Positions 3,487 through 53,960 of a stretch of 64,000 nt of DNA are shown in pieces. This stretch comes from Candidatus Omnitrophota bacterium. GTDB taxonomy: Bacteria; Omnitrophota; Gorgyraeia; Gygaellales; Profunditerraquicolaceae. How positions within the stretch are numbered: the stretch's first letter is position 1; each line of letters begins with the position of its first letter. The translations under genes and the position numbers were made by a program. The notes beneath the pieces are model-generated. The model was not told the origin of the DNA and ran no database searches. It was given only the letters and a program-made list of their open reading frames with translations. Location of the stretch: the NCBI GenBank assembly GCA_028717245.1, contig JAQUOD010000005.1:18637-82636 (forward strand), in the 5' to 3' direction.

Positions 3487-3553
3487 CGTTATTGCGTTAC
3501 TTGCGTTTTAGCGTTATTGCGTTCGAATGCTATAACGCAATAACCCTATAACA
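3487..3553. repeat. CGTTATTG x4-5 / ATAACNNN x4 hairpin element (trkA-trkA spacer)
   Basis: The units CGTTATTG, CGTTACTTG, CGTTTTAG, CGTTATTG and CGTTCG are followed by loop AATGCT and then ATAACGCA, ATAACCCT, ATAACACT and ATAACC. Confidence 0.8.
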
Positions 3554-4204
3554 CTATAACCCAAACCTTTCTCTTACTTTAGTTAGGCTGGCCACCTTCA
3601 CTGCCGCTGTTAATATGTCTCTTTCTCTTAATGTAGTTGAGGATTCCGGGATAATGACGCCGTGCAGCCGCCTGATGGCCACAACCAAAAATTCTCCGGG
3701 GATATTGATATCCTGTATGGTCTTGCCTATCAGGTTATCTTTGGCTTCTATCTCGATAACCCCCAGTTCTTTAGTCTCAATGAGGTAACTGGAAAAGCGG
3801 CTCTCGATGATTTTGTCCCTGAGCATCGCGGCAAACAAGATTGTTCCGCTGATAATCTCAAGGCCCAATGCGGCATAGATATGCGCGCGCTGGGGGTCAT
3901 ATACGCGGGCGATAACCTTGGGGACCTTGAAGATTTTTTTGGCTGCCTGCGCGGAGATTAAATTGGTATTGTCGCCGTTAGTTACCGCACAGAAGGCATC
4001 CGCCTTTTCAATGCCCGCTTGTTTTAGCAGGCTTAAAGAAAAACCATTGCCTACCAGAGTTACTCCGTTGAAAGTATCGCCAAGACGGTCAAAAGACGCC
4101 TGGCTCTTATCAATCACGACTACGTCGTGCCCTTCTGCTGATAAGAGTTTGGCTAATTCCGAACCTACTCTGCCGCAACCTACTATTATCACATACATAA
4201 TCAA
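3554..4204 (-). CDS. trkA: potassium transporter peripheral NAD-binding subunit TrkA (second paralog)
   Basis: It has the motif IIVGCGRVG, a TrkA_N plus TrkA_C architecture, and is 216 aa. Confidence 0.85.
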   Translation of the reverse strand: MIMYVIIVGCGRVGSELAKLLSAEGHDVVVIDKSQASFDRLGDTFNGVTLVGNGFSLSLLKQAGIEKADAFCAVTNGDNTNLISAQAAKKIFKVPKVIARVYDPQRAHIYAALGLEIISGTILFAAMLRDKIIESRFSSYLIETKELGVIEIEAKDNLIGKTIQDINIPGEFLVVAIRRLHGVIIPESSTTLRERDILTAAVKVASLTKVRERFGL

Positions 4205-4211: not shown

Positions 4212-4296
4212 GTTCATTGAGTTCGTTGAGTCTATAGAGTTTATTGAGTTAACCTTACGAACTCAATAACTCAAAAAACTCAACAGGCTCAAATAA
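4212..4296. repeat. NNNTTGAGT x4 / ACTCAANNN x4 hairpin element (trkA-rplT spacer)
   Basis: TCATTGAGT, TCGTTGAGT, CTATAGAGT and TTATTGAGT are followed by a loop and then GAACTCAAT, AACTCAAAA, AACTCAACA and GGCTCAAAT. Confidence 0.85.
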
Positions 4297-4304
4297 CTAT
4301 TATA

Positions 4305-4681: not shown

Positions 4682-4741
4682 GTATCAAAGTATCACGTGT
4701 CAGAGTGTCAAAGGAAAACTTTGATACTTGACACCTTGACA
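4682..4741. repeat. GTATCAAAG/GTGTCAAAG direct + inverted hairpin element (rplT-rpmI spacer)
   Basis: GTATCAAAGTATCACGTGTCAGAGTGTCAAAG is followed by loop GAAAA and then CTTTGATACTTGACACCTTGACAC. Confidence 0.85.
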
Positions 4742-4942
4742 CTAACCGTATGGTAACATCCTTTTGATATACTTGATATCTTTCTTTCCTCCCACAATCC
4801 TTGCGCGCCTTAAGGAACGGATCCTCTTGGTGTCCTTGCTGGTCAAAAGATGGCTCTTGCCGCAAGGCGAATATTTGATTTTACCCTTCTTGGTCAGATG
4901 CAATCTTTTCGCTACGCCTTTTTTGGTTTTCAATTTTGGCAT
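4742..4942 (-). CDS. rpmI: 50S ribosomal protein L35
   Basis: The sequence MPKLKTKKGVAKRLHLTKKGKI is canonical L35, 66 aa. Confidence 0.95.
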   Translation of the reverse strand: MPKLKTKKGVAKRLHLTKKGKIKYSPCGKSHLLTSKDTKRIRSLRRARIVGGKKDIKYIKRMLPYG

Positions 4943-5511: not shown

Positions 5512-5521
5512 CTCCTTTTGG

Positions 5522-5598
5522 AGTTTGTTGAGTTCTTTGAGTTTGTTGAGTTAGTTGAGTTAACTCTATGAACTCTACAAACTCTATAAACTCAATGA
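5522..5598. repeat. NNNTTGAGT x4 / AACTCTNNN x4 hairpin element (infC-thrS spacer; inverted arm reaches thrS stop)
   Basis: TTGTTGAGT, TCTTTGAGT, TTGTTGAGT and TAGTTGAGT are followed by AACTCTATG, AACTCTACA, AACTCTATA and AACTCAATG. Confidence 0.85.
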
Positions 5599-7316
5599 AC
5601 TTTATTTTCTATTTCCTGCCTTATCTGTTTTACAAATTCTTCTATAGGCTTTGCCCCTAAGTCACCCTTGCCTCTTTGGCGCACGGCAACGGTCCCGTTT
5701 ATCTCCTCGCGCTCGCCCACAATCAGGATATAAGGAACCTTTGCTAATTCTGCCTGGCGTATCTTTTTGTTCAGAGTCTCGTTACGCTCATCCACCTCAA
5801 ATCTTATATGAGATTTTTCTAATTCGGGTTTAATCTTGCCCCTGATATACCCCTCTAATGAATCTTTTACCGGGATAACCATGACTTGCGTGGGGGCTAG
5901 CCACAGAGGAAACGCACCCTTATAGTGTTCTACCAAAGCGCCGATAAAACGCTCAAGGCTGCCCAAGAGCACGCGGTGCAACATTATAGGCTGTTTTTCT
6001 TTTCCTTGAGAGTCCACATAGGTAAGATTAAATCTTTTGGGGAGCGCGAAATCGCATTGAATAGTAGCGCATTGCCATTGGCGCTTCAGGGCGTCCTTTA
6101 ATTTTATATCAATCTTCGGCCCATAAAATGCGCCCTCTCCCGCATTTACCGTATAGGTTAAGCCTTTTTCTTTTAATGCCGCCTCCAACGCCTCGGTGGC
6201 CAGCTGCCAGTCTTCTTCTGAGCCGATATATTTTTCCGGACGCGTGCTTAACTCAATCCCCACGTCACTAAAACCGAAGACCTTCATCGTATCAAAGACA
6301 AATTCTATAATCATCTGTATTTCCTGCACCAGTTGTTCGGGTAAACAAAATATGTGCGCATCGTCCTGGGTAAAGCCACGCACCCGAAGCAGGCCGTGGA
6401 GGACCCCTGTCTTTTCATGGCGATAAACCGTGCCCAGTTCAAATAACCGTATAGGCAGGTCTTTATAACTGCGTATCCTGGATTTATAAATCAGGATATG
6501 GCCAGGGCAGTTCATCGGCTTTAAAACAAACTCCCGGTTTTCGATTTTTAAGATGTACATGTTCTCTTTGTAATATTCATAGTGGCCGGAGGTCTTCCAG
6601 AGCTCTGCCTGCATAATATGCGGGGTAATCACTATCTGATAGCCGCGGCGCAGATGCTCCTGCTTTTCGTAATCCTCGATTATCGTCCGCAGTAGCGCGC
6701 CCTTGGGATGATAAAAGACCAGCCCTGCCCCTGCCTCTTCATGATAGATATCAAATAATTCCATTGCCGGCCCCAGCTTCCTGTGGTCGCGCAACTTTGC
6801 CTCTTCTAAATTTTTTAAATATTCTTCTAATTTTTGCTTGGTTTCAAAACAAGTCCCGTAAATCCTCTGCAGCATCGGATTTGTCTCAATCCCGTGCCAA
6901 TAAGATCCGGCAACAGAGAGCAATTTAAAGGCCTGGATTTTGCCGGTGGATGCCAGATGCGGCCCGCGGCATAAGTCTATAAAATCTTTGCCTGTCTTGT
7001 AGATGGAGGCTGTCTCCCCGGGGAGCGCCTGGATAAGTTCTATTTTATAATCCTCTTTTAATTTTTTGAATAAGGCGAGCGCCTCTTTTTTGGAGAGCTC
7101 TTCTCTGATAAAAGGCTCATCCTTAGCGATTATTGCGCGCATCTTTTTTTCTATCTTTTCTAAATCCTCGTCGGTAAATGGCTCTTTCTTATCAAAGTCA
7201 TAGTAAAAGCCGTCTTCGATAGAAGGGCCGATGCCCAGCTTCGCCTGCGGCCAGAGCTCTTTTACCGCCTGAGCCATAATGTGGGAACACGAATGTCTTA
7301 AGGTATCTAAATTCAT
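5592..7316 (-). CDS. thrS: threonine--tRNA ligase
   Basis: This 574-aa protein has a class II aaRS core with ThrRS editing/second-additional-domain HxxxH (HSCSHIMAQA) and a C-terminal anticodon-binding domain. It lies in the conserved thrS-infC-rpmI-rplT neighbourhood. Confidence 0.93.
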   Translation of the reverse strand: MNLDTLRHSCSHIMAQAVKELWPQAKLGIGPSIEDGFYYDFDKKEPFTDEDLEKIEKKMRAIIAKDEPFIREELSKKEALALFKKLKEDYKIELIQALPGETASIYKTGKDFIDLCRGPHLASTGKIQAFKLLSVAGSYWHGIETNPMLQRIYGTCFETKQKLEEYLKNLEEAKLRDHRKLGPAMELFDIYHEEAGAGLVFYHPKGALLRTIIEDYEKQEHLRRGYQIVITPHIMQAELWKTSGHYEYYKENMYILKIENREFVLKPMNCPGHILIYKSRIRSYKDLPIRLFELGTVYRHEKTGVLHGLLRVRGFTQDDAHIFCLPEQLVQEIQMIIEFVFDTMKVFGFSDVGIELSTRPEKYIGSEEDWQLATEALEAALKEKGLTYTVNAGEGAFYGPKIDIKLKDALKRQWQCATIQCDFALPKRFNLTYVDSQGKEKQPIMLHRVLLGSLERFIGALVEHYKGAFPLWLAPTQVMVIPVKDSLEGYIRGKIKPELEKSHIRFEVDERNETLNKKIRQAELAKVPYILIVGEREEINGTVAVRQRGKGDLGAKPIEEFVKQIRQEIENKVH

Positions 7317-7317: not shown

Positions 7318-7394
7318 GTCGTTAATCGTTATTCGTTAATCGTTATTAGATGGCTAACTTATCCATTAACGATTAACTATTAACCAATAACTAA
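7318..7394. repeat. CGTTAAT/CGTTATT x4 + ATTAACG-type x4 hairpin element abutting thrS start codon
   Basis: CGTTAAT, CGTTATT, CGTTAAT and CGTTATT are followed by loop AGATGGCTAACTTATCC and then ATTAACG, ATTAACT, ATTAACC and AATAACT. The element begins 1 nt from the thrS ATG on the minus strand. Confidence 0.85.
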
Positions 7395-15396: not shown

Positions 15397-16731
15397 ATGC
15401 TGGACGTCCAAGGGCTTTGGGAGAAGGCGAAGAGCCATTTACAAGATAAGCTGGGTAAGACTACTTTTGACACGTGGATACTGCCTCTGAAGCCAAAATA
15501 CACAAGCGAAACTGAGCTGACCCTGGCAGCCCCGGATACTTTTTTCCGGGACTGGGTAAATACGCACTATGGCCAACCCATCCAGGAAGCAATTAATGGT
15601 TTCGCCAAGCAGGTAATCCGTCTGCATTTAGAAGCCGCCTCTGCTGCCAAGGATAGTTTATCCCGACTACCCCCACTGGCCACAACTAAAATCCAGGATA
15701 TAAAGGATATCTCCGGCCTGAACTCCCGTTATACATTTGAAAATTTTGTCATCGGCCCGTCTAACCGCCATGCCCATGCTTATTCTCTGGCAGTGGCAGA
15801 ATCCCCGGCCAAAACTTATAACCCTTTGTTTATATACGGCGGGGTGGGCCTGGGCAAGACGCACCTGATCCAGGCGGTCTGCCATCATGCTAAAAACAAG
15901 GCCGGGGGGAATCTTAAGATCTGCTATATGACTTCAGAGCGGTTCACCAATGAGCTCATCGACGCCATACAGCACCATTCTACACCTGCCTTCAGGCAGA
16001 AATACAGAAACGTGGATATATTGGTCATAGATGATATACATTTTATTGCCGGCAAGGAATCTACCCAGGAAGAATTCTTCCATACCTTTAATACATTATA
16101 CGACGCCCACAAGCAGATTATTATTTCCTCCGATAGGCCGCCCAAAGAGATATCTAACTTGCAAGACAGGCTCGTCTCCAGGTTTGGCTGGGGGTTGACT
16201 ACGGATATACAGCCCCCGGATTTAGAAACGCGGGTGGCGATATTAAAGAAAAAAATCGAGAGAGAGCCGGTGGCAGTGCCGGATGAAGTCATATTTTTTA
16301 TCGCCCAGCTGATTAAAACTAATATCCGGGAATTGGAGGGCGCTCTCATACGCACCATAGCTTATTCTCTGTTGGAAGAGAAACCAATTACCTTAGAATT
16401 AACCAAAGAGGTTTTAAAAGACCTCTTAAAAGAACCACAAAAATTAATTACCGTGGATTTTATACAGCGTTGCGTGGCGGAAGAATACGGGGTGTCGCTT
16501 GCGGACTTAAAGACCAGGCGTAGGAGCAAAAATATTGTCCTGCCCCGGCAAGTAGCTATGTATCTGAGCAGGGAACTTACAGACCTGTCTTTGCCGGAAA
16601 TAGGTAATTTTTTCGGGGGCAAAGATCATACTACCGTATTACATTCCTATAATAAAATCAAAAATGATTTAAATAGTAACGAGATATTAAAAAACAAGGT
16701 AGAAAGGGTTATACAAGTTATTCAACAGTAA
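15397..16731 (+). CDS. dnaA: chromosomal replication initiator DnaA
   Basis: It has the AAA+ Walker A GGVGLGKTHL, sensor motifs, and a C-terminal DnaA-box binding HTH (VAMYLSRELT). It is 444 aa. Confidence 0.97.
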   Translation: MLDVQGLWEKAKSHLQDKLGKTTFDTWILPLKPKYTSETELTLAAPDTFFRDWVNTHYGQPIQEAINGFAKQVIRLHLEAASAAKDSLSRLPPLATTKIQDIKDISGLNSRYTFENFVIGPSNRHAHAYSLAVAESPAKTYNPLFIYGGVGLGKTHLIQAVCHHAKNKAGGNLKICYMTSERFTNELIDAIQHHSTPAFRQKYRNVDILVIDDIHFIAGKESTQEEFFHTFNTLYDAHKQIIISSDRPPKEISNLQDRLVSRFGWGLTTDIQPPDLETRVAILKKKIEREPVAVPDEVIFFIAQLIKTNIRELEGALIRTIAYSLLEEKPITLELTKEVLKDLLKEPQKLITVDFIQRCVAEEYGVSLADLKTRRRSKNIVLPRQVAMYLSRELTDLSLPEIGNFFGGKDHTTVLHSYNKIKNDLNSNEILKNKVERVIQVIQQ

Positions 16732-16873
16732 ATCCAAGGGTTATGATAGTAATGTGTTTTATATAACCAACGTAAAATAATGCACTTAAAAAATTTTACA
16801 CATAAAACAAAACCCTATTACTTTTAATATGATATATATTATATATAATAATTAATAATAAAAGGAGTTTTAA
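16732..16873. promoter_or_regulatory. AT-rich dnaA-dnaN spacer, candidate DNA unwinding element of oriC
   Basis: This is a 140-bp stretch of very high AT content (runs ATATATATTATATATAATAATTAATAATAAAA) in an otherwise GC-balanced window. Confidence 0.5.
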
Positions 16874-17961
16874 ATGAAAATTAAGGTTACAAAAGATGTT
16901 TTATTAAGCGGCATACAAAAAGTACAGAATGTTATTACCTCTAAAGCTACATTACCCATATTATCCAATATATTACTTGAAGCGCAACAGAACAATCTTA
17001 AGTTAACCGCAACCGATTTAGACATAGGGATAAGCTGTGTAATACCTGTGGAAACCCAGGAACCCGGAATCATAACAGTCCCCGCTAAAAGATTTAGCGA
17101 TATTATTAAAGAATTACCCGGAGATAATGTTAGTATTAATACCAAAAAAAATAACCTGGTAATTGTGGAGACCGAAACCTGTCAGTTTAAAATTATGGGT
17201 TTAGCTCCCGAGGATTTTCCCAAACTACCCGAGTTTAAAAATATGGCAGTAATCCACTTAGAGCAGGCTACCTTAAAAGAAATGTTGAATTTAACCGCAT
17301 TTGCGGTATCATTGGACGAAACCAGGTATATTTTAAATGGTATATTATTTAAACTCCATCATAATAGCCTGACCTTAGTAGCCACAGACGGTAAAAGACT
17401 GGCGGTAGCTGAGAAAACACTACAGCAGCCCTTAGAGAAAGACATACAAATTATTGTGCCTTTGAAGGCCATACAGGAATTGAACCGCAATCTTAAAGAA
17501 GAAGGAGAGCTGGCGTTATTGTTAGGGAATAATCAGGTGTTATTTGATTTTAATGGTACCATAGTGATTTCCCGCCTTATTGAGGGGGAATTTCCGGATT
17601 ACCAGCAGGTAGTCCCGCCATTATCAGAGAATAAAATACATATCCCCCGCGAACAGTTTTTATGGGCTGTACGCAGGGCGGCTTTGTTGTCAACGCCGGA
17701 TTACCAGGCGGTAAAATTAGAGACCTTCAAAAATAAATTAGTGGTTTCAAAATCTACTCCTGATATCGGGGAATCCCGGGAAGAATTGGCTGTAGAATAC
17801 CGGGGCAAAGAGATGGCCATTGGTTTTAACCCCGCGTACCTGGCGGATGTCTTGAAGAATTTACAGGATGAGAATGTGGAGCTGGAATTAACCGATAGCG
17901 AAAAACCCGGGGTTATACGGTTGAGTGGATATGTTTATATTGTGCTGCCCATGCGTTTAAG

Positions 17962-17965
<4 letters not shown>
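16874..17965 (+). CDS. dnaN: DNA polymerase III beta sliding clamp
   Basis: This 363-aa protein has the three-domain clamp pattern and sits directly downstream of dnaA. Confidence 0.95.
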
Positions 17966-22013
<4,048 letters not shown>

Positions 22014-22014
22014 A

Positions 22015-22160
22015 AATTTGTGTAATGTGTAAAGTGTAATGTGTAAAGCGGGTGTAATGCAAAAGATAGGTGTAATGGGGAAAACACTTGCATTACACGG
22101 TAAAATATTAAACCTACATTACACGTTACACATTTAACGTTACACAGAAACGCAGCCCCT
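22015..22160. repeat. intergenic direct/inverted array of GTGTAAT(G) / CATTACAC units (gyrB-gyrA spacer)
   Basis: There are about 6 GTGTAA(A/T)G units followed by 4 CATTACAC/GTTACAC units, a long imperfect hairpin. Confidence 0.8.
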
Positions 22161-22175
22161 TAACTTTTATTAAAA

Positions 22176-25100
22176 ATGTATACGCGTAACGAAAAAATTA
22201 TCCCGGTTTATATTGAGGATGAGGTCAAGGACTCTTATTTAAATTATGCCATGAGCGTCATCGTCGGCCGCGCCCTGCCCGATATCCGCGACGGCTTAAA
22301 GCCGGTGCACAGGCGCATTCTTTATGCCATGCAGGAGCTTAATCTTGACCACTCTAAGCCTTATAAGAAATGCGCGCGTATCGTCGGCGAGGTCCTGGGT
22401 AAATACCATCCCCACGGCGATGTCGCGGTTTATGATGCCTTAGTCAGGATGGCCCAGGGTTTTTCCCTGCGCTATCCTTTGGTAGACGGGCAGGGAAATT
22501 TTGGATCGGTCGACGGGGATGCAGCTGCCGCGATGAGATATTGCGTCACCGGAGATACTCTGATTGTTACAGATAAAGGACTGCAAAGAATAGACAAACT
22601 TCCTCATCATTCCAAAACAGATTTTCGGGTACTTTCATTAAATAATAAGATAAATCATGTTTCAAAATGGTTTGATTCCGGAGAGCATTTAACTAAAAAA
22701 ATTACTACCTTTAGAGGTTTTAGCTTATGCGGGAGCCGGAATCATCCTATTTTAACGTGGCAACGTAATGGAACAAAGCCAAAATTAGTTTGGACACTAT
22801 TGAATAATGTAGAAAATGGCGATTTTGTCGTAGTCAGTAGGAGCGGTTCGTTATTCCCTTCAAGGGAACCTTTATTAAAAAAATTTTATCCAGAACTTCG
22901 AAACAGAAGGCAGGAGCATAAGCTTCCTCGCGCTATGAATGTAGATCTGGCTTTTATTTTGGGAGCGCTAATTGCAGAAGGTTCTATAAGCAGGGAACAA
23001 ATTGGATTCTGTAATGGGGATAAAGAGTTTCTACGGGAATTTAAATCGTGTTTCCAGCGAGTATTCCCCGATTGCAGGCTGCATGAATTTGTAAGAAAAC
23101 CGTTGAGTTATGGGAAAAAGAAATGTACTTATTTAGAAATTCATTCAATGCATGTTATAGATTTTTTGAAAAATCTAGGGTTACGTCAGTTGCGAGCTTA
23201 TGATAAAACCATTCCAGATATAATTTTTTCTTCCTCGAAAAAATCGGTTGCCGCGTTTATAAAAGGTTATGCAGAGGGAGATGGTAGTATTTGTGTTGGC
23301 AAAAGAAACCCTGATATCAGCTTGATATCAACCAGCGGAAAATTGATTCAAGGTTTACAGGTTTTCCTCCTAATGTTTGGCATTGATTCTTCGCATAGAT
23401 TTCATAAGCAAAAAAACTATTTTAGGTTGTTTATTAGAGGCCGCAACAATCTCGATTTATTTAAAAATCAAATAAATTTTGCTACTAGGAAAAGTCGTGA
23501 AAGGTTGATAGATATTTGTAATCGCAATAAAACTGATTGGGTTATGTCCAAGACAGATTGTATTCCCTACATCGCCGACTATCTTCGTAAAAAAAGCACA
23601 CGGTGCAAGAGAAAATATTGGGGGAACATAGAATGGCTAAAAAAACACAACATCGATAGGTACCCAAAAATAGAAAAATACTGGCCCAGGCTAAGAAGGG
23701 TTCTTGATAAAGACGATGTTAGTTTGTTTGAGGGTTTGATAAAAAATAGATATATCTTTGATAAAATTGTTTCGGTAGAAGATGCTGGTAAGAAAAGAGT
23801 CTATTCAATTAAAGTGGATAGCCCGTGCCACTCATTTGTATCCAATGGATTCATAAGTCATAATACTGAAGCGCGCCTGGCTGCTATTTCCGATGAGATA
23901 CTCGCGGATATTGATAAGGACACCGTAAATTTCGGGCCCAATTTTGACTCCTCCCTCAAAGAGCCGCTTTTATTGCCCGCGGCCTTGCCTAATCTGTTAG
24001 TGAACGGCTCAAGCGGTATAGCTGTGGGTATGGCTACCAATATCCCCCCGCACAATTTGAATGAAGTGGCCGATGCCATTATCTATCTATTAGATCATCC
24101 GGAAACCGAAATCAAGGACCTGATGCGTTATATCAAGGGTCCGGATTTTCCGACGGGCGGCGTAATCTGCGGCAGGAACGGTATCAAAGATGCCTATACC
24201 ACAGGAAAAGGTAAGCTCACCGTGCGCGCGCGGGCCACTATCGAGCGCCAGAAGAACGGCAAGGACCTGATTATAATTACTGAGATTCCCTACCAGGTGC
24301 AGAAATCCGCGTTAATTGAGGCCGCCGCCGCTTTGGTGGACGATAAAAAAATAGAGGGTATTTCTGACATCCGCGATGAATCCGATAAAGACGGGATGCG
24401 TATCGCGGTAGAACTCAAGCGCGACGTGGAAGCGCAGATTGTCTTGAATCAGCTCTTTAAACATACGCAACTGGAGACTACCTTCGGGATTATTATGCTG
24501 GCGCTGGTAGACAACAGGCCGCGGGTTTTGACGTTACGTCAGATGTTGGAATATTATATCGAGCACCGCAAGATTATCATCCGGCGCAGGACGCAATTTG
24601 AATTAGATAAGGCCTTAAAGAGGGCGCATATCTTAGAGGGCTTAAAGATTGCCCTGAAATACATCGACCGGATTATCAAGGTCATCAAGACCTCCAAGAA
24701 TACGGAGAATGCCAAAGAGCGCCTGATGAAGGAATTCGGCCTTTCTGATGTGCAGGCGCAGGCGATATTAGAAATGCAGTTGCAGCGCCTCACTGCTTTA
24801 GAGCGCGATAAGATTGACGCCGAATATTTAGAGCTCCTGAAAAAAATTGAACTGTGTAAAGCCATACTCGCCTCGGAGAAGAAAATTGAAGGCATCATCA
24901 AAGAGGATCTGGAGGCCTTAAAGAAAAAATACGGCGATGAACGCAGGACCGACCTGGTCGCCGAAGCAGAAGAATTAGAGGTGGAAGACCTTATCGCCGA
25001 AGAAGACGTAGTGGTGACAATAAGCCACGGCGGTTATATCAAGCGCTTGCCGGTGAGCGCCTACCGTAAACAGAAACGCGGGGGCACAGGGGCAACGGGC

Positions 25101-25931
25101 GCAGAAGTCAAAGAAGAGGATTTTATAGAACATCTTTTTGTGGCCTCGACCAAAGATTATTTATTGACCTTCGCTGATAAGGGCCAGGTGCATTGGCTCA
25201 AGGTTTATGAAATCCCGCAGGCCAGCCGCACTTCCAAAGGCAAGGCCATCATTAATCTTTTACAGATGGAAGCAGGCTCTAAAGTCAGCTCGACCATACC
25301 GGTGAAGGAATTCTCCGCTGACCAATACCTGGTAATGGTCACCAAGTGCGGCCAGATTAAAAAGACAAGGCTTGACGCCTACGGTAATCCGCGCAAGGGC
25401 GGGATTATCGGCATTAGCCTGGATAAGGGCGATGAGCTGATCGGCGTAGAGTTAACCGACGGAAAACAGGAGCTGCTTATCGGTACCCGCCAGGGTAAGG
25501 CCATAAGATTTTCTGAGAGCAAGGTGCGGGATATGGGCAGGCAGGCAGGAGGCGTACGCGCCATCTCTTTAGCCAAGAAAGACGAAGTGATTGCCATGGT
25601 TTTAGCCCAGAAGGATACCACAGTATTAACCGTTACGGAATTAGGCTTTGCCAAACGTACACCCATTCAAGAATACCGCCTGACCAGCCGCGGCGGCAAA
25701 GGCATTATTAATATAAAAGTCACCAGTAAGAACGGCGAGGCAGTAAGTTTAAAGACTGTCAGCGACAACGACGAGCTGATGGTTATTACACAGAACGGCA
25801 TGTTCTTACGTTGTGCGGTCAAAGATATCCGCACTACCGGCAGGTCTGCCCAGGGAGTGCGGCTGATTAAGCTACAGGAGAAAGACCGCGTTTCTTGCGT
25901 GGCGCCGGTGATTGCAGAAGAGGAAGAATAA
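22176..25931 (+). CDS. gyrA: DNA gyrase subunit A, intein-containing precursor (about 810-aa extein plus 441-aa intein)
   Basis: The GyrA N-terminus is present. AAMRY (catalytic Tyr at extein residue 122) is interrupted by CVTGDTLIV...NGFISHN and resumes at [11 protein letters not shown]. Confidence 0.95.
22542..23864 (+). mobile_element. GyrA intein with LAGLIDADG homing endonuclease domain
   Basis: It is inserted directly after the catalytic Tyr. Splice-junction blocks resemble the mycobacterial GyrA intein (…ITNGFVSHN). LAGLIDADG motifs are [14 protein letters not shown] and [14 protein letters not shown]. It is 1323 nt and in frame. Confidence 0.85.
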
Positions 25932-26044
25932 CCCCTAAAGTCCCCATCGTCTTCCCGCCATTCTATGCAATAGCAGGCGGGATCCCGCCTGAATATATAG
26001 GTTGTTTGGCGGGAAGCCTGGTCTATGACAAATTGTTGCAGGAC

Positions 26045-26308
26045 ATGTACTATGTTTATGTTCTTGAGAACGCGAAGGGTAAGTACTATATAGGCAGTTG
26101 CGAAAATCTATCGGCACGGCTAAAACAGCATAATCAAAACTGTGTTAGTTCGACAAAAAATAAAGGGCCATTTATAATAGTTTACAAAGAAGATTGTGCC
26201 ACAAAAACAGAAGCACGTAAACGAGAGAGCCAGTTAAAGGGCTACAAAGGCAACAGTAAGTTTGATAGATTAATAACGAGCTTGTCCCCATCGTCTAGCC
26301 TGGTCTAG
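26045..26308 (+). CDS. GIY-YIG nuclease family protein (small YhbQ-like)
   Basis: The sequence MYYVYVLENAKGKYYIGSCENLSARLKQHNQ...KTEARKRESQLKGY carries the GIY-YIG motifs. The likely start is ATG 26045, and the longer track ORF from 25895 overlaps gyrA. The last 8 codons read into tRNA-Glu. Confidence 0.7.
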   Translation: MYYVYVLENAKGKYYIGSCENLSARLKQHNQNCVSSTKNKGPFIIVYKEDCATKTEARKRESQLKGYKGNSKFDRLITSLSPSSSLV

Positions 26309-29891: not shown

Positions 29892-29987
29892 TAGTTCATT
29901 GAGTCTATTGAGTTCATAGAGTCCATTGAGTTGTATATATCATAACTCAAAAAACTCAAAAAACTCAAAAAACTCAAAAAACTCAAT
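29892..29987. repeat. 9-mer NNNTTGAGT x4 / ACTCAAAAA x4 hairpin element (pyrR-pyrB spacer, ends at pyrB ATG)
   Basis: The units CATTGAGT, CTATTGAGT, TCATAGAGT and CCATTGAGT are followed by loop GTATATATCATA and then ACTCAAAAA x4 plus ACTCAAT. Confidence 0.85.
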
Positions 29988-33472: not shown

Positions 33473-33544
33473 GCGCCTGTAGCGCAATGGATAGCGCACT
33501 AGCCTCCGGAGCTAGTGGTGACAGTTCGACTCTGTCCAGGCGCA
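33473..33544 (+). tRNA. tRNA-Arg (anticodon CCG)
   Basis: The sequence is GCGCCTG-TA-GCGC-AATGGATA-GCGC-A-CTAGC-CTCCGGA-GCTAG-...GACAG-TTCGACT-CTGTC-CAGGCGC-A. Confidence 0.8.
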
Positions 33545-33564: not shown

Positions 33565-33586
33565 CCCTGCCTGCCGGCAGGCAGGG
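33565..33586. repeat. perfect palindrome CCCTGCCTGCCGGCAGGCAGGG (related copy inside pyrK at 41462-41483)
   Basis: It has 11-bp arms, there is no U-tract after it, and a near-copy CCCTGCCTGTCCGGCAGGCAGG is embedded in the pyrK coding sequence. Confidence 0.8.
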
Positions 33587-39067: not shown

Positions 39068-39431
39068 CCGTATCGAGTTAGTGGATATTACGGAGAGAAT
39101 CCAGGCAATAGTATCTAAAAGCAAAGTTAAAGATGGCGTGTGTTTTCTCTTCTGTCCGCATACTACTGCCGGGCTGACTATCAATGAAAACGCAGATCCG
39201 TCGGTCAGGCAGGATATTATCCGTGCCCTGAATAAGCTCATCCCGGAAAATGCCGGATACACGCATAGTGAAGGCAATTCCGATAGCCATATCAAGGCAG
39301 CGCTCTTTGGTTCTTCCCTAACTATATTTATTGAGAGTGGCCGCTTGGCATTCGGCACTTGGCAGGGGATATATTTTTGCGAAGGCGACGGACCGCGCTC
39401 CAGAGAGGTCTGGGTTAAAATTTTAAGTTAG
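39039..39431 (+). CDS. YjbQ/UPF0047 family protein (secondary thiamine-phosphate synthase-like)
   Basis: It has the YjbQ pattern [21 protein letters not shown]...HIKAAL and is 130 aa. It overlaps the carB 3' end by 29 nt. Confidence 0.75.
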
Positions 39432-39550
39432 CACCTGGTGTGAATCCAATCGGGCACCAGGTGCGAATTCAAGATTGTACCAGGTACAAGATTAGATTTG
39501 GAAACGGTACAAGATTAGTTTCGCACCTGGTACGAGATTAGCTCGGCACC
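39432..39550. repeat. array of 5-6 palindromic GCACCNGGTGC-type units (upstream of mutM)
   Basis: The units CACCTGGTG, GCACCAGGTGC, GTACCAGGTAC, GCACCTGGTAC and GCACCTAGTGC are separated by spacers of about 10-18 nt that contain AAGATTAG. Confidence 0.8.
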
Positions 39551-39552
39551 TA

Positions 39553-40368
39553 GTGCAAGGAGAAGAAATGCCGGAGTTACCGGAAGTTGAGACCATAAAA
39601 AGGGAATTAGAAAAAGCAGTCCTGGGCAAGAAGATTACCGAGGTCTATGTGCATCGTGCTGTGGTTATTCGTCAACCCTCTGTAAAGAGATTTAAGCTGG
39701 GCTTAACCGGCGCCAGCATTAAGCATATCTTGCGTAAGGCCAAGGTTTTGATTTTGGAGCTTTCTAACGGTAAGGCCCTGGTTATTCATTTGAAGATGAC
39801 CGGCCAACTGGTTTATCCGGGTAATGATAAAGCCAGCCGGGTGAGTTTTAAATTATCCGGCGGTAAAACCCTGGATTTTAACGACCAGAGATTATTTGCG
39901 GAACTGCGGCTGATGGATGATTGGCGCAGCTTAAAATTTATCCAGGGATTAGGCCCGGAGCCGTTTGCTATAACCGCGGAAGAATTCAAAGGCATGCTCA
40001 GCAGTAAAAAGACTAAAATCAAACCACTGCTTTTGGACCAAACATTTATTTCCGGCATAGGCAATCTCTATGCTGCGGAAGCGCTCTTTCGGGCCGGGAT
40101 TCATCCTGAACGGCCCGCGTCTTCTTTAACAGATAGAGAAAAAGCTTTGTTATTTCGGGAAATAAAAGATACTTTATCCGAAGCTATAAGATACAAAGGT
40201 TCCTCGGTAGACCAATACGTGCAGTTATCGGGTGAACCCGGAGACTACGCGCAATATCATAAGGTATATGGCCGCGAAGGTAAGCCTTGTTTGGTCTGCA
40301 AAACACCGATTAAAAGGATGGCCTTAGGCGGCAGGGGGACTTATTTCTGCCCGAGGTGCCAGCGCTAA
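39553..40368 (+). CDS. mutM: formamidopyrimidine-DNA glycosylase
   Basis: It has the N-terminal MPELPEVE and a C-terminal zinc finger CxxC...CxxC, and is 271 aa. Confidence 0.9.
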   Translation: MQGEEMPELPEVETIKRELEKAVLGKKITEVYVHRAVVIRQPSVKRFKLGLTGASIKHILRKAKVLILELSNGKALVIHLKMTGQLVYPGNDKASRVSFKLSGGKTLDFNDQRLFAELRLMDDWRSLKFIQGLGPEPFAITAEEFKGMLSSKKTKIKPLLLDQTFISGIGNLYAAEALFRAGIHPERPASSLTDREKALLFREIKDTLSEAIRYKGSSVDQYVQLSGEPGDYAQYHKVYGREGKPCLVCKTPIKRMALGGRGTYFCPRCQR

Positions 40369-40369: not shown

Positions 40370-41053
40370 ATGAAAAAACGCCTGAAGATAAACGGACTGA
40401 TTATGTTTCTGGCAGTTGTTTTGATCCTGGCTTTTCCTAAGATATTTTTCCGGCGGCCGCAGGCACTTTTCTGGGACGGATTCGCCAATATCTGCGGTAT
40501 TGCGCTTATTCTTTTAGGCCAGATTTTTCGGGCCTCTGGCCGGGGTTACAAATCCGCAAATTCCCAAAATAGCCGCTCTTTGATTGAGCGGGGGCCTTAT
40601 ACCCTGGTGCGTAACCCCATGTATCTGGGTATACTTTTAACCGGGCTGGGGGTTGTACTTGCGCTCTTTAATTTCTGGGCGCTGGTTATTTTCCTGTGCG
40701 TTTTTATTGTACGCTACATCTTCCTTATCTTTCAGGAAGAAAAGAAACTTGTAGCAGTGTTTGGCCAGGCGTACCAGGATTACCAGCAAAGAGTCCCCCG
40801 CCTTATCCCTGCTTGGGGCGCGCTATTAAAGAAAGATATCGCAGAATACCTTCCATTAAAAACGCTCTGGCTAAAAAAAGAAATAGGCTCAATATTAGCC
40901 GTGCTTTTTGTTGTTTTTTTGATAGAGGGTTGGAACGATGCGCTCAGCATGGGTTTAAGTATGTATCTACGCAAAACAGTATTAACCTTAAGTGTCATTA
41001 TCGTATTCTCAGGCCTGATTATTTATTTGCTCAAAAAGACAGGTGAACGGTAA
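40370..41053 (+). CDS. membrane methyltransferase, isoprenylcysteine carboxyl methyltransferase (ICMT/PEMT) family
   Basis: It is a multi-TM protein with RGPYTLVRNPMYLG, the ICMT/PEMT signature, and is 227 aa. Confidence 0.65.
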   Translation: MKKRLKINGLIMFLAVVLILAFPKIFFRRPQALFWDGFANICGIALILLGQIFRASGRGYKSANSQNSRSLIERGPYTLVRNPMYLGILLTGLGVVLALFNFWALVIFLCVFIVRYIFLIFQEEKKLVAVFGQAYQDYQQRVPRLIPAWGALLKKDIAEYLPLKTLWLKKEIGSILAVLFVVFLIEGWNDALSMGLSMYLRKTVLTLSVIIVFSGLIIYLLKKTGER

Positions 41054-41918
41054 AAAGATGCTTCAAATCAAGGCAAAAATACTTTATAATAAAAGGATTA
41101 AGGGTAATTATTTTCAACTGGTCCTGGGAGCTTCGCAGATAGCCAAAGAAGCCCAGCCAGGACAATTTGTGAATATCAGGGTAAACGGCGGCGCTTTTGA
41201 ACCGCTGCTGCGCCGGCCCTTTAGTATCCATAAGGCCTCAAGAGGTAGCATAGAGATTCTTTATGAGGTGCTGGGTGAGGCGACGCAGATTTTATCAACT
41301 CGCAAGGCAGGGGAATATTCAGATGTGATTGGGCCATTAGGGCATGGTTTTAATTACAGCTTACAGCTTACAGCTTACAGCTTACGGATATTAGTTGCCG
41401 GCGGCATGGGAGTCGCGCCGCTTTTATTCCTCGCGGAAAAAATACAGAGGTGTCAAAGTGTCCCTGCCTGTCCGGCAGGCAGGAAAGTGTCAAAGTATCA
41501 AAGTATGGTATTAATAGGAGCTAAGACAAAATATCAGCTTTTCTGCGAAAAAGAGTTTAAAGATTTAGGTTGCGCAGTAAAAATCGCCACTGACGACGGC
41601 TCAAGAGGTTTTAAGGGCAAGGTTACTGAGTTGTTAAAACATATTCTACCAACGACCAACGACCAACGACCAACGACCATATACGCTTGCGGCCCAAGGC
41701 CGATGTTAAAACAAGTTGCGTTGATTTCTCAAAAACATAAAATTCCCGGTCAGATTTCTTTAGAAGAACATCTGGCCTGCGGCATAGGTGCGTGTTTAGG
41801 TTGCGTAGTGAATACGACAGGAGGTTTTCAGAGAGTCTGTAAAGAAGGCCCGGTCTTTAGCGCTGATAGTATAATCTGGTCAAATGAAGACGAGACTTAT
41901 GGAGCGAAGCGAACGTAA
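41043..41918 (+). CDS. pyrK: dihydroorotate dehydrogenase electron-transfer subunit PyrK (with three in-frame repeat insertions)
   Basis: It has the FAD-binding RRPFSI, an NAD-binding domain, and C-terminal Cys ligands CGIGACLGCVV for the 2Fe-2S cluster. Confidence 0.8.
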   Translation: MNGKKMLQIKAKILYNKRIKGNYFQLVLGASQIAKEAQPGQFVNIRVNGGAFEPLLRRPFSIHKASRGSIEILYEVLGEATQILSTRKAGEYSDVIGPLGHGFNYSLQLTAYSLRILVAGGMGVAPLLFLAEKIQRCQSVPACPAGRKVSKYQSMVLIGAKTKYQLFCEKEFKDLGCAVKIATDDGSRGFKGKVTELLKHILPTTNDQRPTTIYACGPRPMLKQVALISQKHKIPGQISLEEHLACGIGACLGCVVNTTGGFQRVCKEGPVFSADSIIWSNEDETYGAKRT

Positions 41919-43182: not shown

Positions 43183-43272
43183 AAGCGGCGTCAAAGTATC
43201 AAGGTGTCAATGTGTCAAAGTGTAGATTTTTTGATACTTTGATACACTGACACTTTGACACAACATTAGGAG
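43183..43272. repeat. GTCAAAGT/GTATCAAG x4 + inverted x4 hairpin element (GT2-tauE spacer)
   Basis: CGTCAAAGTATCAAGGTGTCAATGTGTCAAAGTG is followed by loop TAGATTTT and then TTGATACTTTGATACACTGACACTTTGACAC. Confidence 0.85.
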
Positions 43273-43640: not shown

Positions 43641-44576
43641 ATGCAAAACAAACTTTCCGTGAATATAGGTAACTTGAAACTCAAGAACCCGGTGATGGTT
43701 GCCTCAGGTACATTTGGTTATGCCGATGAATTCCGGGGCTTTATGGATTTAAAAAAACTGGGCGCGATTGTCACCAAGACCATTACCTTAAAGCCCCGCC
43801 AAGGCAACCTGCCCCCGCGCACCTGTGAAACTCCCGCGGGCATGCTTAACTCTATCGGCTTAGAAAATCCCGGGCTTATAGTTTTTCTGGCAGAGAAATT
43901 ACCCCAGTTGAAAAAGATAGGCGTGCCGATAATTATCAGCATTGCCTCTGAGGATAACCCGGATGAATTTATCAGCCTTGCAAAGCGTCTGGATAAAGTC
44001 AGGGGAGTCGCGGCGATAGAGCTAAATATTTCCTGCCCTAATGTTAAAAATCCCAAATCCCAAATCCCAAATCCCAAACTAATCTCTCAGAATCCAAAAG
44101 CAACTTATAATTTAGTCAGGCAGGTGCGCAAGGTTACCAGCAAGACTATTATTACCAAGCTTTCCCCTAATGTTACCGATATCGCCGAAATCGCTTTGGC
44201 AGCTGAAAGAGCCGGCAGCGACGCGGTTTCTTTAATAAATACGCTTACCGGCATGAGCATAGATATAAAAACGAAGAAACCTAAGATCGCAAGCGTTACG
44301 GGAGGTTTAAGCGGTCCGGCAATTAGGCCGGTTGCGGTGAGGATGGTCCGGGAGGTTTATCAAAAGATTAAAATCCCTATCGTCGGAATGGGTGGTATAA
44401 TGGATACCAAAAGCGCACTGGAATTCTTTATTGCCGGGGCAACGGCAATCAGCATAGGCACGGCGAATTTTATTAATCCCAAGGTAACCATGGAAATAAT
44501 CCAGGGTATAAAGGAATATTTGATTACCAATAAAATAAAAGATATTAAAATACTGAGCGGGAGCCTTAAAACATGA
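43641..44576 (+). CDS. pyrD: dihydroorotate dehydrogenase catalytic subunit (class 1B)
   Basis: It has the TIM-barrel DHOD motifs ASGTFGY...NSIGLENPG...ELNISCPN...GGI. It contains an in-frame AAATCCC x4 repeat. Confidence 0.9.
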   Translation: MQNKLSVNIGNLKLKNPVMVASGTFGYADEFRGFMDLKKLGAIVTKTITLKPRQGNLPPRTCETPAGMLNSIGLENPGLIVFLAEKLPQLKKIGVPIIISIASEDNPDEFISLAKRLDKVRGVAAIELNISCPNVKNPKSQIPNPKLISQNPKATYNLVRQVRKVTSKTIITKLSPNVTDIAEIALAAERAGSDAVSLINTLTGMSIDIKTKKPKIASVTGGLSGPAIRPVAVRMVREVYQKIKIPIVGMGGIMDTKSALEFFIAGATAISIGTANFINPKVTMEIIQGIKEYLITNKIKDIKILSGSLKT

Positions 44577-45277
44577 AACCAGCGAACAGCGAACAGCGAA
44601 CAGCGACCCAACTGATTCTCGCCCTGGACGTAGATAACCCTAGAGAGGCGCTACGTTGGGTAAAGTTGCTTTATCCGAAAGTAAAAATTTTTAAGGTGGG
44701 TTTAGAGCTTTATACAGCAGGCGGCCCCAAGATTATTCGGGCTATCCGTAAAACAGGGGCGAGCGTTTTTTTGGATTTAAAATTTAATGATATCCCTAAC
44801 ACCATGGCAAAAGCAGCTAAAGAGGCATTAAAGCATAAAGCAGCCATGTTTACAGTGCATACCTTATCCGGGCCAACCGCGCTTAAGGAGGTTAGCAATA
44901 TCTGCCGCGGAAGCCATACTAAGGTCTTAGGGGTAACCCTGCTCACCAGTATCTGCGGCCGTTTCCTGAAAGATTTAGGAATTAATAAGCCAGTGTCGAG
45001 TGAAGTCCTGTATTTAGCCAGAATGGCAAGAAGATGCGGCTTAGACGGCGTGGTCTGCTCTGTGCAGGAGGCAAGGATAATCAGGAAACGCTTAGGCAGG
45101 AATTTTATTATTCTTACTCCCGGGATAAGGCCAGATGGTTTTATAAAAGAAGACCAGAAAAGGATTGCCACGCCCAAAGACGCAAGGGAAGCCGGTGCAG
45201 ATTTTATTGTCGTCGGCAGGCCAATACTTAAAGCAAAGAATCCAAGACAGGTAGTAGAAGAGATATTGACGGGATAG
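44573..45277 (+). CDS. pyrF: orotidine 5'-phosphate decarboxylase
   Basis: It has LILALDV...DLKFNDIPNT. The N-terminus carries a CAGCGAA x4 repeat. Confidence 0.9.
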   Translation: MKPANSEQRTATQLILALDVDNPREALRWVKLLYPKVKIFKVGLELYTAGGPKIIRAIRKTGASVFLDLKFNDIPNTMAKAAKEALKHKAAMFTVHTLSGPTALKEVSNICRGSHTKVLGVTLLTSICGRFLKDLGINKPVSSEVLYLARMARRCGLDGVVCSVQEARIIRKRLGRNFIILTPGIRPDGFIKEDQKRIATPKDAREAGADFIVVGRPILKAKNPRQVVEEILTG

Positions 45278-52550: not shown

Positions 52551-53522
52551 ATGCACCTTCTCGAACGTACAAACAGGTTTAAAAGAATAGAGAGAAGATT
52601 TGATTCTCCCATTGAAGATTTGCTTTATCAGATGCATTGGCTGGAAGATATGAAGCATAGGGATATTGCCCTAAATTTGCATGCGCCGAGAGCAACAATA
52701 ACAAGATGGTTTCGCCGTTTGCAGGTGCCAACTCAGAGTTGCCGCAGATTTACTGATATGAATCTAACAAGTTGGCTATATAAAATTGGAAAATTAAAAA
52801 AGAAACCCCGCTATAGCGGTCCAGACAAAAGGCTCCAGCGGACAAGACAGGGATTAAATGTAGATTTCTTCAAGAAATGGTCAGTAGAGATGGCTTATGT
52901 ATTGGGATATTTCGCTGCCGATGGGTGCATGTTTATTAATCCGCGGGGGTCAAAATATATTTCATTTACTTCTTGTGACCGCGAAATCTTGCAGAAAGTC
53001 AAGCGGATGTTGGGCTCTGAGCATAAGTTTAGTGTAAAAAATAGGCAGAATAGAAACTGGAAAGATGCTTTTACCTTACAAATTGGTTCCAAAGAGATGT
53101 ATCAGGATTTAATAAAAAAAGGTTTTATGCCTAAAAAAGCATCTAGATTTAAATTGCCGGCCGTGCCTAAAAAATATATGAGGCACTTTATTAGAGGGTA
53201 TTTTGATGGTGATGGCAGCGTTACTTATGGGTATTTTAAAAGAAAAGATAGAAATAATAAGATGACTTCATACCTTTTAACTTGTTTATCTTCGGCAAAT
53301 TTACGTTTTTTAAGGGGAATCTCCAAGGTTTTGAAAGAAAATATAGGTATTAACGGAGGATATATAGATAAAAAAGGTGGCCACCTTGCTTATTCTAAGC
53401 TTGACAGCATTAAGTTATTCCAGTATATTTATACAAACGTTAATAAGGGGCAATACTTAGAAAGAAAATATAAGAAGTTTAGGAAGGCATTCGAAATTAA
53501 TAGGGGCTGTGGCCTAGTCTAG
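52551..53522 (+). CDS. free-standing LAGLIDADG homing endonuclease (second copy, two-motif type)
   Basis: It is 323 aa with the motifs AYVLGYFAADGCMF and FIRGYFDGDGSV. It starts 11 nt after tRNA-Val, and its last codons overlap the 5' end of tRNA-Asp. Confidence 0.8.
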   Translation: MHLLERTNRFKRIERRFDSPIEDLLYQMHWLEDMKHRDIALNLHAPRATITRWFRRLQVPTQSCRRFTDMNLTSWLYKIGKLKKKPRYSGPDKRLQRTRQGLNVDFFKKWSVEMAYVLGYFAADGCMFINPRGSKYISFTSCDREILQKVKRMLGSEHKFSVKNRQNRNWKDAFTLQIGSKEMYQDLIKKGFMPKKASRFKLPAVPKKYMRHFIRGYFDGDGSVTYGYFKRKDRNNKMTSYLLTCLSSANLRFLRGISKVLKENIGINGGYIDKKGGHLAYSKLDSIKLFQYIYTNVNKGQYLERKYKKFRKAFEINRGCGLV

Positions 53523-53817: not shown

Positions 53818-53960
53818 TTGCATTTGCTATCGCGTATGGTATAATTGTTTTAAAAGCAATAGTAGATAAGTAAGTGGTCTGGGAATATACAAAAGTATTC
53901 CCGGAGGATTTTCGATGGTCGGGCCGCCATCTTGCATGATAATGCGGGATGGCGTTTTTT
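53818..53960 (+). promoter_or_regulatory. promoter (TTGCAT-16-TGgTATAAT) plus leader with mutually exclusive antiterminator/terminator hairpins
   Basis: The leader contains GGGAATA...TATTCCC, then GATGG-TCGGGCC-GCCATC overlapping CGCCATC-...-GATGGCG-TTTTTT. This lies 34 nt upstream of ATG 53994. Confidence 0.55.

Follow-up and report, generated by a model that had tools for sequence, protein, structure and literature searches.

A tandem-repeat system shared across Omnitrophota and a 21-nt palindromic insert shared across phyla

Introduction

How did a small palindrome come to lie in frame inside pyrK, within a tandem octamer repeat that also occupies spacers between other genes of the same region? 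The question is raised by a 64,000-nt stretch of contig JAQUOD010000005.1 from a Candidatus Omnitrophota bacterium (assembly GCA_028717245.1, positions 18,637 to 82,636), which is called the window below. The original prediction for this DNA described GTCAAAG-type octamer hairpins in the GT2-tauE and rpmI-rplT spacers, a copy in pyrK that encloses a palindrome, and the same palindrome after a tRNA-Arg gene. It regarded the pyrK copy as a small insertion flanked by a target-site duplication (TSD). When the sequence was re-read, all four sites were present as described, and the identities of the genes at these sites were confirmed (PyrK, GT2, TauE, PyrD, L35, and L20, that is, Pfam Ribosomal_L20 = rplT). 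The pyrK palindrome, termed P here, and the repeats around it proved to belong to a repeat system shared across Omnitrophota and to a 21-nt palindromic insert shared across phyla. We consider it probable that they represent two superimposed layers of selfish or neutral repeat DNA, namely tandem arrays and the inserted P.

Results

P interrupts an octamer array in pyrK

Alignment of 23 Omnitrophota PyrK proteins revealed three hypervariable sites common to all of them, and the pyrK feature of the window lies at the second. It consists of an octamer array split into two parts by P, and both the array and P are translated in frame (Table 1). P has an 8-bp stem around a 5-nt centre, its length of 21 nt places it in the size range of the palindromic REPs (repetitive extragenic palindromes, 20–40 bp), and it is the sole inverted repeat of the pyrK copy. 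Direct units with inverted partners were found in both intergenic copies, whereas the pyrK copy contains direct octamer units only. With P deleted, the pyrK array reads GTGTCAAA x4.6. The boundaries of P are unambiguous owing to the flanking bases C and A, and since its removal restores the periodicity of the array, the flanking repeats are array units and not a TSD. The GTGTCAAAGT flanks, which had been taken for such a duplication, continue as a tandem array once the 21 nt are removed.

The view that the pyrK segment is extra loop sequence that keeps the frame was borne out by three comparisons. At site 2, the window protein exceeds the shortest orthologs by 15 aa, which equals 45 nt, that is, three octamers plus 21 nt, and PyrK of L. 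lactis (PDB 1EP3_B) shows a 13-residue gap at this site. An AlphaFold model of moderate quality (mean predicted local distance difference test score, pLDDT, 69.8) placed the site-2 segment between a helix (residues 124–139) and a strand (153–160) with pLDDT <50 at residues 142–149, and all three variable sites fell between secondary-structure elements.

Exact P was detected at unit junctions in the pyrK genes of four species, each time between different units (AAAGTGTC, CAAGCTC, CAAAATC, and CGCTATC). These arrays occupy site 2 or site 1, and their periodicity is restored by deletion of the 21 nt. P peptides, each with array peptides alongside, were found in eight of 120 PyrK homologs, and their occurrence at three sites, in both orientations, and in several frames indicates repeated insertion. 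P is present at some and absent at other orthologous sites. We concluded that P is a discrete 21-nt unit that is inserted precisely and without target duplication. A fixed position of P within the arrays (approximately two units 5′ and three units 3′ in the first four cases) was considered and discarded, because the wider set had 1–3 units on the left and 1.7–3.6 on the right.

At site 2 of the L004 pyrK, an AAAATCA array encloses two other mini-palindromes, TCCCCCTTCG...CGGGGGA and TCCTTCG...CGAAGGA.

P occurs in many phyla

P is not confined to two sites, and the idea of a mobile insert thus survives: exact P was found in at least 120 genome stretches in a scan of one genome per species, in at least 120 metagenome stretches, and in 10 viral stretches, so that host range and copy numbers are lower bounds. 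According to the titles of the sequence records, the hosts among the listed matches were Bacteroidota (most), Patescibacteria, Omnitrophota, Planctomycetota, Chloroflexota, and Nitrospirota, and further Ignavibacteria, Proteobacteria, Bdellovibrionota, Thermodesulfobacteriota, a Melainabacteria-like metagenome-assembled genome (MAG), and one Woesearchaeota MAG. In the metagenome matches listed for the 19-nt core, the outer C was kept in 120/124 and the outer G in 121/124, and the central asymmetric T was conserved; variant P copies coexist with exact ones. The palindrome after tRNA-Arg(CCG) in the window is such a related copy and not an identical one as predicted, being a 20-nt variant that lacks the central T; CCTGCCTGCCGGCAGGCAGG together with its flanks makes a perfect 24-nt palindrome. 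The 20-nt variant was also found downstream of tRNA-Arg(CCG) in L001, at a different distance, and was absent in L002 and L005.

As most P carriers are MAGs from short-read assemblies, an assembly or sequencing artefact (an adaptor or a chimeric hairpin) might be suspected. This is extremely improbable, since P forms clean 21-nt in-frame additions in collinear genes, recurs in independent projects, assemblers, and long-read chromosomes, and shows a strong frame bias (below). It is also present in three listed records that are not labelled as MAGs, Aureibaculum sp. 2210JD6-5, Psychroserpens sp. AS72, and Maribacter sp. 2307UL18-2.

The base 3′ of P was C or T in 112/124 listed metagenome matches, while the 5′ base was rarely T. 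Periodic arrays surround 17 of 248 distinct listed P sites, 16 of these arrays being heptameric, and P is often enclosed in a loop, which belongs either to a different small hairpin or to a P-like copy. Among the loci L202, L208, L232, L045, and L175 and L014, L018, L061, L069, L081, L094, and L119, P is nested in P-like copies (at TC^CGG of the loop) and also stands directly beside varied GC-rich mini-hairpins of the CCCCTC...GAGGGG type in Patescibacteria, Bacteroidota, and Omnitrophota. These nested and adjacent mini-hairpins suggest a whole population of nested mini-palindromes. Two loci carry several copies: L034 (a Chitinophagales MAG) contains four in 8 kb, of which two belong to a larger repeated segment, and L126/L132, which represent one 35-kb viral contig, contain three.

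Long open frames contained 104 of 137 listed copies (~76%) compared with 84% of control positions. A check by hand showed all six frames of P to be free of stop codons. Among the listed copies in open reading frames (ORFs), 75 were antisense and 29 sense, and the LPAGQAG frame accounted for 50 of the 75 antisense copies. A replication-strand bias was considered as the source of this excess and rejected, as 25 antisense versus 29 sense copies remain without LPAGQAG. The antisense excess comes entirely from this frame and thus reflects peptide tolerance rather than strand targeting; the bias toward LPAGQAG points to purifying selection on the encoded peptide. The Mfd protein of Aureibaculum sp. 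2210JD6-5 illustrates such an insertion: it reads QKIDVEG-LPAGQAG-KKQEAIK, with seven extra residues from P, whereas LPAGQAG is absent from all 111 Mfd homologs compared (61–81% identical), which read QKIDVEGKKQEAIK or a variant of equal length.

In L035 and L058, which belong to different Bacteroidota, P (read as LPAGQAG) occupies a matching position just before an (A/H)FIGKDN motif, in a gene that looks by eye like that of methionyl-tRNA synthetase (MetRS). This shared site represents either an old insertion with conserved P or a hot spot.

Flanks of P and search for mobilising machinery

Identical sequences flank P on both sides in pyrK (8 nt in the window, 7 nt in L001–L003), and P is a hairpin that is dispersed like REPs. 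These observations would fit a MITE-like (miniature inverted-repeat transposable element) or REP-like transposon in pyrK that duplicated its GTGTCAAAGT target and was mobilised by a REP-associated tyrosine transposase (RAYT) of the IS200/IS605 type. However, the flanks extend as two to three more units of a tandem array, and arrays of this kind without P exist at pyrK site 2 and elsewhere. Across 252 listed P sites, there was no excess of direct flanking repeats of 2–6, 8, or 9 nt; the 7-nt repeats were in excess owing to the heptamer-array contexts, and no TSD was seen at P sites outside arrays. The sequence GTAG lay within 8 nt of an end of P at 10 of the 252 sites and CGTC at 20, roughly the chance level by estimate, and P occurs as singlets located mostly inside genes.

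Neither a transposase-like domain, including that of a Y1 transposase, nor a reverse-transcriptase domain was found among 50 window ORFs scanned against Pfam, and no RAYT gene flanked by P was seen in these ORFs or among the neighbours of P at approximately 250 listed loci. The families recurring near P were all housekeeping ones (histidine kinases, ABC-F proteins, AAA ATPases, aminoacyl-tRNA synthetases, and EF-G); a tyrosine recombinase occurred at five of these loci, which is unremarkable. Considering these results, a RAYT-mobilised transposon with a duplicated target is quite improbable. The insertion, its placement in a loop, the preserved frame, and the dispersal of the palindrome, all parts of the original prediction, held, while the TSD was wrong, as the array is continuous without P, and mobilisation by RAYT was unsupported, as P has no GTAG or CGTC tag.

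GTCAAAG-type repeats belong to a larger class of arrays

The GTGTCAAAGT unit with at most one mismatch occurred 13 times in the window (1.8 expected; none of 100 shuffles reached 13), exclusively in the hairpins at 43188–43262 and 4682–4742 and in pyrK. The GTCAAAG octamers are one family in a far larger class. The window holds 21 arrays with a period of 7–9 nt and at least 3.5 copies, compared with a mean of 0.03 in 100 Markov-1 simulations. Identical units recurred at different loci in 11 of 179 array pairs within a genome and in 2 of 666 between genomes, and because of this large difference, unit families such as GTCAAAG can be accepted as real and the hairpins as forming families. Many arrays show ABAB super-periods of two units (14, 16, and 18 nt), which fit two-unit slippage.

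A search with Tandem Repeats Finder (TRF) and an inverted-repeat scan detected hairpins in ten spacers, all between co-directional genes. Nine of them are built from direct 7-, 8-, 9-, or 23-nt units followed by inverted copies (Table 1), and the tenth, in the pyrK-GT2 spacer, is a plain hairpin. The hairpins span 30–40 bp, their arms are 70–84% complementary, and their predicted RNA stabilities range from −18 to −52 kcal/mol. The hairpin upstream of tauE has 30-nt arms with 80% complementarity, a minimum free energy of −33.7 kcal/mol as RNA, and TRF periods of 8 and 16; its 3′-end precedes the ribosome-binding site (AGGAG) and the ATG of tauE at 43280. No duplication was found at the flanks of either octamer hairpin (60–75 nt). 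The hairpin between yjbQ and fpg has the architecture of the others with a longer unit. The arrays in pyrK, pyrD, and pyrF consist of direct units and are in frame, and the ACCAACG unit of pyrK site 3 recurs at 1157–1181.

Table 1. Repeat features and associated genes in the 64,000-nt window
Feature	Position	Strand	Details
5′ octamer-array part, pyrK site 2	41450..41462	+	GTGTCAAAGTGTC, ~1.6–1.9 units
P, 21-nt palindromic insert	41463..41483	+	CCTGCCTGTCCGGCAGGCAGG, translated PACPAGR
3′ octamer-array part, pyrK site 2	41484..41506	+	AAAGTGTCAAAGTATCAAAGTAT, ~2.9 units
Octamer-unit hairpin, GT2-tauE spacer	43188..43262		~4.2 direct GTCAAAGT units (43190–43223), 10-nt centre, ~3.6 inverted units (43230–43262)
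Octamer-unit hairpin, same family as at 43188–43262	4682..4742		Fills rpmI-rplT spacer; both genes on minus strand
20-nt P variant without central T	33566..33585		CCTGCCTGCCGGCAGGCAGG; 21 nt downstream of tRNA-Arg(CCG)
Perfect heptamer array TTACAGC x4.6	41354..41385	+	pyrK variable site 1; three-frame reading LQLTAYS
Perfect heptamer array ACCAACG x4.6	41648..41679	+	pyrK variable site 3 (PTTNDQRPTT)
Perfect heptamer array AAATCCC x4.4	44048..44078	+	pyrD, after NISCPN motif
Perfect heptamer array CAGCGAA x3.9	44580..44606	+	pyrF N-terminus
Octamer-unit hairpin (CGTTATTG type)	3487..3562		Between two trkA genes
9-mer-unit hairpin (TTGAGTT core)	4212..4298		Between rplT and trkA
9-mer-unit hairpin (TTGAGTT core)	5521..5605		Between thrS and infC
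Heptamer-unit hairpin (TCGTTAA/TCGTTAT, ABAB pattern)	7319..7393		Between tRNA-Val and thrS
Heptamer-unit hairpin (GTGTAAT/GTGTAAA)	22019..22145		Between gyrB and gyrA
9-mer-unit hairpin	29893..29986		Fills spacer between pyrR-like phosphoribosyltransferase gene and pyrB; right arm perfect AACTCAAAA x4.8
Hairpin of 23-nt units	39431–39556		GGTACAAGATTAG... x2.6 plus inverted partners; between yjbQ/UPF0047 gene and fpg
rpmI (L35)	4742–4942	minus	Checked
pyrK	41043–41918	+	PyrK identity checked
tRNA-Arg(CCG)	33473–33544

Arrays keep their positions across Omnitrophota

In five Omnitrophota loci, 38 arrays had a period of 7, whereas periods 5, 6, 8, and 9 were represented by 2–6 arrays each. In 120 PyrK homologs, residue identities at an offset of 7 aa numbered 241 at site 1 (29–110 at other offsets) and 267 at site 3 (42–155), and a residue repeat of this kind is what a heptamer array yields when translated through three frames. 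Site 1 repeats read YRLPITD, YQLPITN, YSLQLTA, and YDLRLTT in different species, for which back-translation by hand gave TACCGAT, TACCAAT, TACAGCT, and TACGACT; those of site 3 read PTTNDQR in one case and RTTNDER in another. The pyrD array after NISCPN was found in four of the five species, with the units AAATCCC, AAATCGC, and AAAGCGC and an AGTCC type. The first three differ by single substitutions, each of which is carried by every unit of the array, and the protein repeats of PyrK point to the same pattern. No array is present at the pyrD site of L003, where the protein is 7 aa shorter than that of the window, corresponding to three units. Arrays at the N-terminus of pyrF were present in three of five species, with CACCAGT or AGACCCA at the matching place in the orthologs. 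The coding arrays keep approximately 4–5 units across species. Related but different units at matching positions of orthologs argue for slippage with homogenisation in place, and the arrays are probably old occupants of permissive positions, homogenised by slippage or conversion.

The pyrK alleles of L004 (792–1676) and L005 (10001–10783) are ~85% identical between sites 2 and 3 and ~99% outside. The difference is a recombination mosaic with breakpoints that coincide with the arrays. Rapid replacement of arrays in place was tried as an explanation on these near-identical loci; as the difference is a recombination tract, the pair is uninformative on in-place turnover.

In the window and the four other Omnitrophota, all five orthologous spacers upstream of tauE contain hairpins of unrelated sequence; tandem units make up four of these hairpins and a P-like palindrome the fifth. 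In L003, the pyrK coding sequence itself contains at site 2 (3575–3655) a full heptamer hairpin of direct and inverted units (TAGCGTA / TAAACGC), and a second hairpin of this unit family (4056–4128) occupies the next spacer upstream of tauE. This pairing mirrors the window, where the GTCAAAG family holds both places.

Possible function or templated synthesis as alternative explanations of the hairpins

The tauE spacers, in which the hairpin is kept while its sequence is replaced, suggest that the hairpins, and possibly P, could be selected functional structures. They might serve as mRNA stem-loops in processing, stability, or termination or as periodic binding sites of a genome-specific protein, the repeat architecture being the way in which the stems are built and maintained. 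Several observations agree with a function: co-directional genes flank every one of the ten hairpins, which fill the spacers; the unit repertoire per genome is limited; and the P variant follows tRNA-Arg(CCG) in two species. On the other hand, the folding energies of the ten hairpins on both strands revealed no consistent preference for the transcribed strand, and the arms are only 70–84% complementary. The stems are AT-rich tandem units, and the hairpin ending at 43262 is followed by ACAACATTAGGAG and no T-run; the GC-rich stem plus T-run of intrinsic terminators was thus not found there. Rfam recognised only tRNAs and one nhaA-I riboswitch in the window and no family matching a hairpin. Moreover, an RNA signal is implausible for the same arrays and P where they are translated in frame as parts of unrelated enzymes. 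Considering both sides, we judge a selected function unlikely.

The architecture of four or so units followed by four or so inverted units around an irregular centre recalls another route, templated end-addition, in which a telomerase- or reverse-transcriptase-like activity would add units at the 3′-ends of breaks that are then joined head to head, P being the smallest product. The copy number is similar for 7-, 8-, and 9-nt units, the unit set of a genome is limited, the arms of P are themselves tandem tetramers, (CCTG)2-TCCGG-(CAGG)2, and the window encodes many homing endonucleases and inteins, which are a source of breaks. Nevertheless, no candidate enzyme was seen among the scanned window ORFs, the single homogenised substitutions between orthologous arrays fit evolution in place and not re-synthesis, and the conserved asymmetric T of P is unexpected from random head-to-head joining. 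This route is highly improbable.

Gene context of the window

The window includes the chromosomal replication origin region (13026–25928), with yidC, parB, and parA on the minus strand and dnaA (15397–16728), dnaN, a DciA-like gene, gyrB, and gyrA on the plus strand; the GC skew switches there from −0.095 (1–14540) to +0.11 (15397–64000). The GyrB gene (18243–22010) encodes an intein at residues 464–886, and the GyrA gene (22176–25928) an intein with a LAGLIDADG domain at residues 134–563. Free-standing LAGLIDADG homing-endonuclease-like ORFs are located at 7577–8242 (−) and 52551–53519 (+), both adjoining tRNA genes, and a GIY-YIG ORF at 25895–26305 (+). With these inteins and homing-endonuclease ORFs, the genome is rich in selfish elements. 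The nhaA-I riboswitch match lies at 53875–53932 (47.3 bits; gathering score 37).

Discussion

The most satisfactory explanation of the locus, and in our view the probable one, combines the two layers of repeat DNA named at the outset. The first would consist of arrays with 7–9-nt units in approximately 4–5 copies, which occupy fixed permissive positions throughout Omnitrophota, namely surface loops or termini in enzymes and, outside genes, the spacers that separate co-directional neighbours. The arrays would grow and remain homogeneous by replication slippage or unequal exchange. Within genes, only steps of three units (21 or 24 nt) would survive, which would leave 1.x native plus three added copies, while spacers would hold a direct array and, behind it, an inverted one from its unit family, able to fold into a 30–40-bp hairpin as DNA or mRNA. 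The features at 43188–43262 and 4682–4742 would be two such spacer hairpins, and the pyrK copy a direct array of the GTCAAAG unit family at the ancestral variable site 2. Slippage is the likely engine of the arrays, and the hairpins may have some role in mRNA.

The second layer would be P, which entered the pyrK array exactly between two units and duplicated no target sequence. As a non-autonomous insertion element occurring in many phyla, P would settle 5′ of a pyrimidine, frequently in hairpin loops, P-like copies, or tandem arrays. Such landing sites suggest a preference for DNA in a transiently single-stranded or extruded state. P can persist in genes because it is seven codons long, has no stop in six frames, and encodes small flexible peptides.

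Several observations weigh against this explanation. Heptamer slippage in coding DNA passes through frameshifted intermediates, and the homogeneity of arrays at constant length is left unexplained. The presence of one unit at several loci of a genome requires dispersal or ectopic conversion, not purely local slippage. The identity of the exact 21-mer across phyla is hard to reconcile with the ordinary decay of selfish elements, and the hairpins kept in orthologous tauE spacers could mean function rather than neutrality. Furthermore, clustering of 3,815 open frames from the approximately 250 listed loci gave no recurrent mobilising gene family next to P, and no master copy or enzyme for P was found in these loci or in the 50 window ORFs.

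A bolder version is conceivable, which we put forward tentatively and hold somewhat less likely than its negation. P may be an ultra-small 21-nt insertion element of prokaryotes that enters V^Y sites in hairpin loops, tandem arrays, and ordinary coding DNA with its sequence unaltered, in at least 10 bacterial phyla, one archaeal MAG, and phage contigs. An unrecognised, horizontally spreading trans-acting machinery or template would then hold the sequence constant, and the Omnitrophota arrays, position-conserved within core enzymes and evolving in concert, may be long-lived landing pads. No such ultra-small element or mechanism, and no description of the P sequence, its six peptides, or the Omnitrophota repeats, was found in the searchable literature. 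Should P prove to be mobile, it would rank with the smallest mobile DNA known, and either its movement or its passage across phyla unchanged would imply a new mobilising activity or template. The three carrier records not labelled as MAGs look like cultured strains, which makes mobility testable by experiment.

The consequences extend to the host proteins. Housekeeping proteins such as PyrK, Mfd, MetRS, Tgt, and aminoacyl-tRNA synthetases gain seven residues where P lies in their genes, so that nature has repeatedly carried out a loop-insertion experiment, and annotation and alignment may be misled by P. The heptamer arrays indicate that non-triplet repeats can last very long inside essential genes while evolving in concert. 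They also bear on the over-representation of heptamers in bacteria and on the preference for four units where no G-quadruplex can form.

Comparison with known repeat systems

REPs and REPINs (doublets of REPs) are predominantly extragenic, imperfect palindromes of 20–40 bp that often occur as inverted doublets. REPs carry an unpaired GTAG or CGTC tag at one end, intragenic REPs sit in frame in genes of known proteins without destroying them (PMC3733652), and REPs have been proposed to be non-autonomous mobile DNA (PMC3116915). P resembles them as a short dispersed palindrome tolerated in frame, for which intragenic REPs and the Rickettsia palindromic elements set a precedent. However, P lacks the tag, is a singlet apart from occasional nesting, is mainly intragenic, and is not species-specific, and the Rickettsia elements are much larger. 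MITEs are defined by terminal inverted repeats and a TSD at a length of 70–300 bp (PMC3733652), and P, with only 21 nt and no TSD, falls outside this class. In phase-variable contingency loci, the repeat copy number varies within populations and switches the gene on and off. The coding arrays are similar to contingency loci in having non-triplet units, so that a slip of one unit would shift the frame, but they lie in the housekeeping genes pyrK, pyrD, and pyrF and have a near-constant copy number across species.

The short tandemly repeated repetitive (STRR) sequences of the cyanobacteria Calothrix and Nostoc are dispersed tandem heptanucleotides with few unit families per genome, located mostly between co-directional genes; approximately four units are preferred, and some inverted pairs can form stem-loops. 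The related heptameric simple sequence repeats of Xanthomonas and Nostoc (GGGAATC-type) lie between genes, show a preference for four units, and in some cases are inverted, and the over-representation of heptamers is unexplained (PMC4692102). The Omnitrophota arrays share these traits, being dispersed heptamer families of approximately four units that are mostly intergenic. In contrast to them, they also use 8- and 9-nt units, and many lie in frame in PyrK, PyrD, and PyrF at phylum-conserved positions with homogenised substitutions. As the Omnitrophota units are not G-rich, G-quadruplexes cannot explain their four-unit preference.

The small dispersed repeats SDR4–6 of Nostoc punctiforme, which belong to eight SDR families ascribed to Elhai and colleagues in 2008, are reportedly 21–27 nt long, some with central palindromes. 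They are said to be nested in tandem heptamers and in each other, with precise insertion and no evident TSD, and reportedly were described within heterocystous cyanobacteria, mostly between genes. SDR5 of N. punctiforme inserts precisely between the third and fourth nucleotide of the HIP1 palindrome (PMC4390886). In its size, its nesting in arrays, palindromes, and copies, and its precise insertion, P matches the SDRs as described. Unlike them, P is letter-identical across many phyla, an archaeal MAG, and viral contigs, and ~76% of its listed copies lie in ORFs. Taken together, the STRR and SDR repeats of cyanobacteria and the intragenic REPs are the closest known analogues of the Omnitrophota arrays and P.

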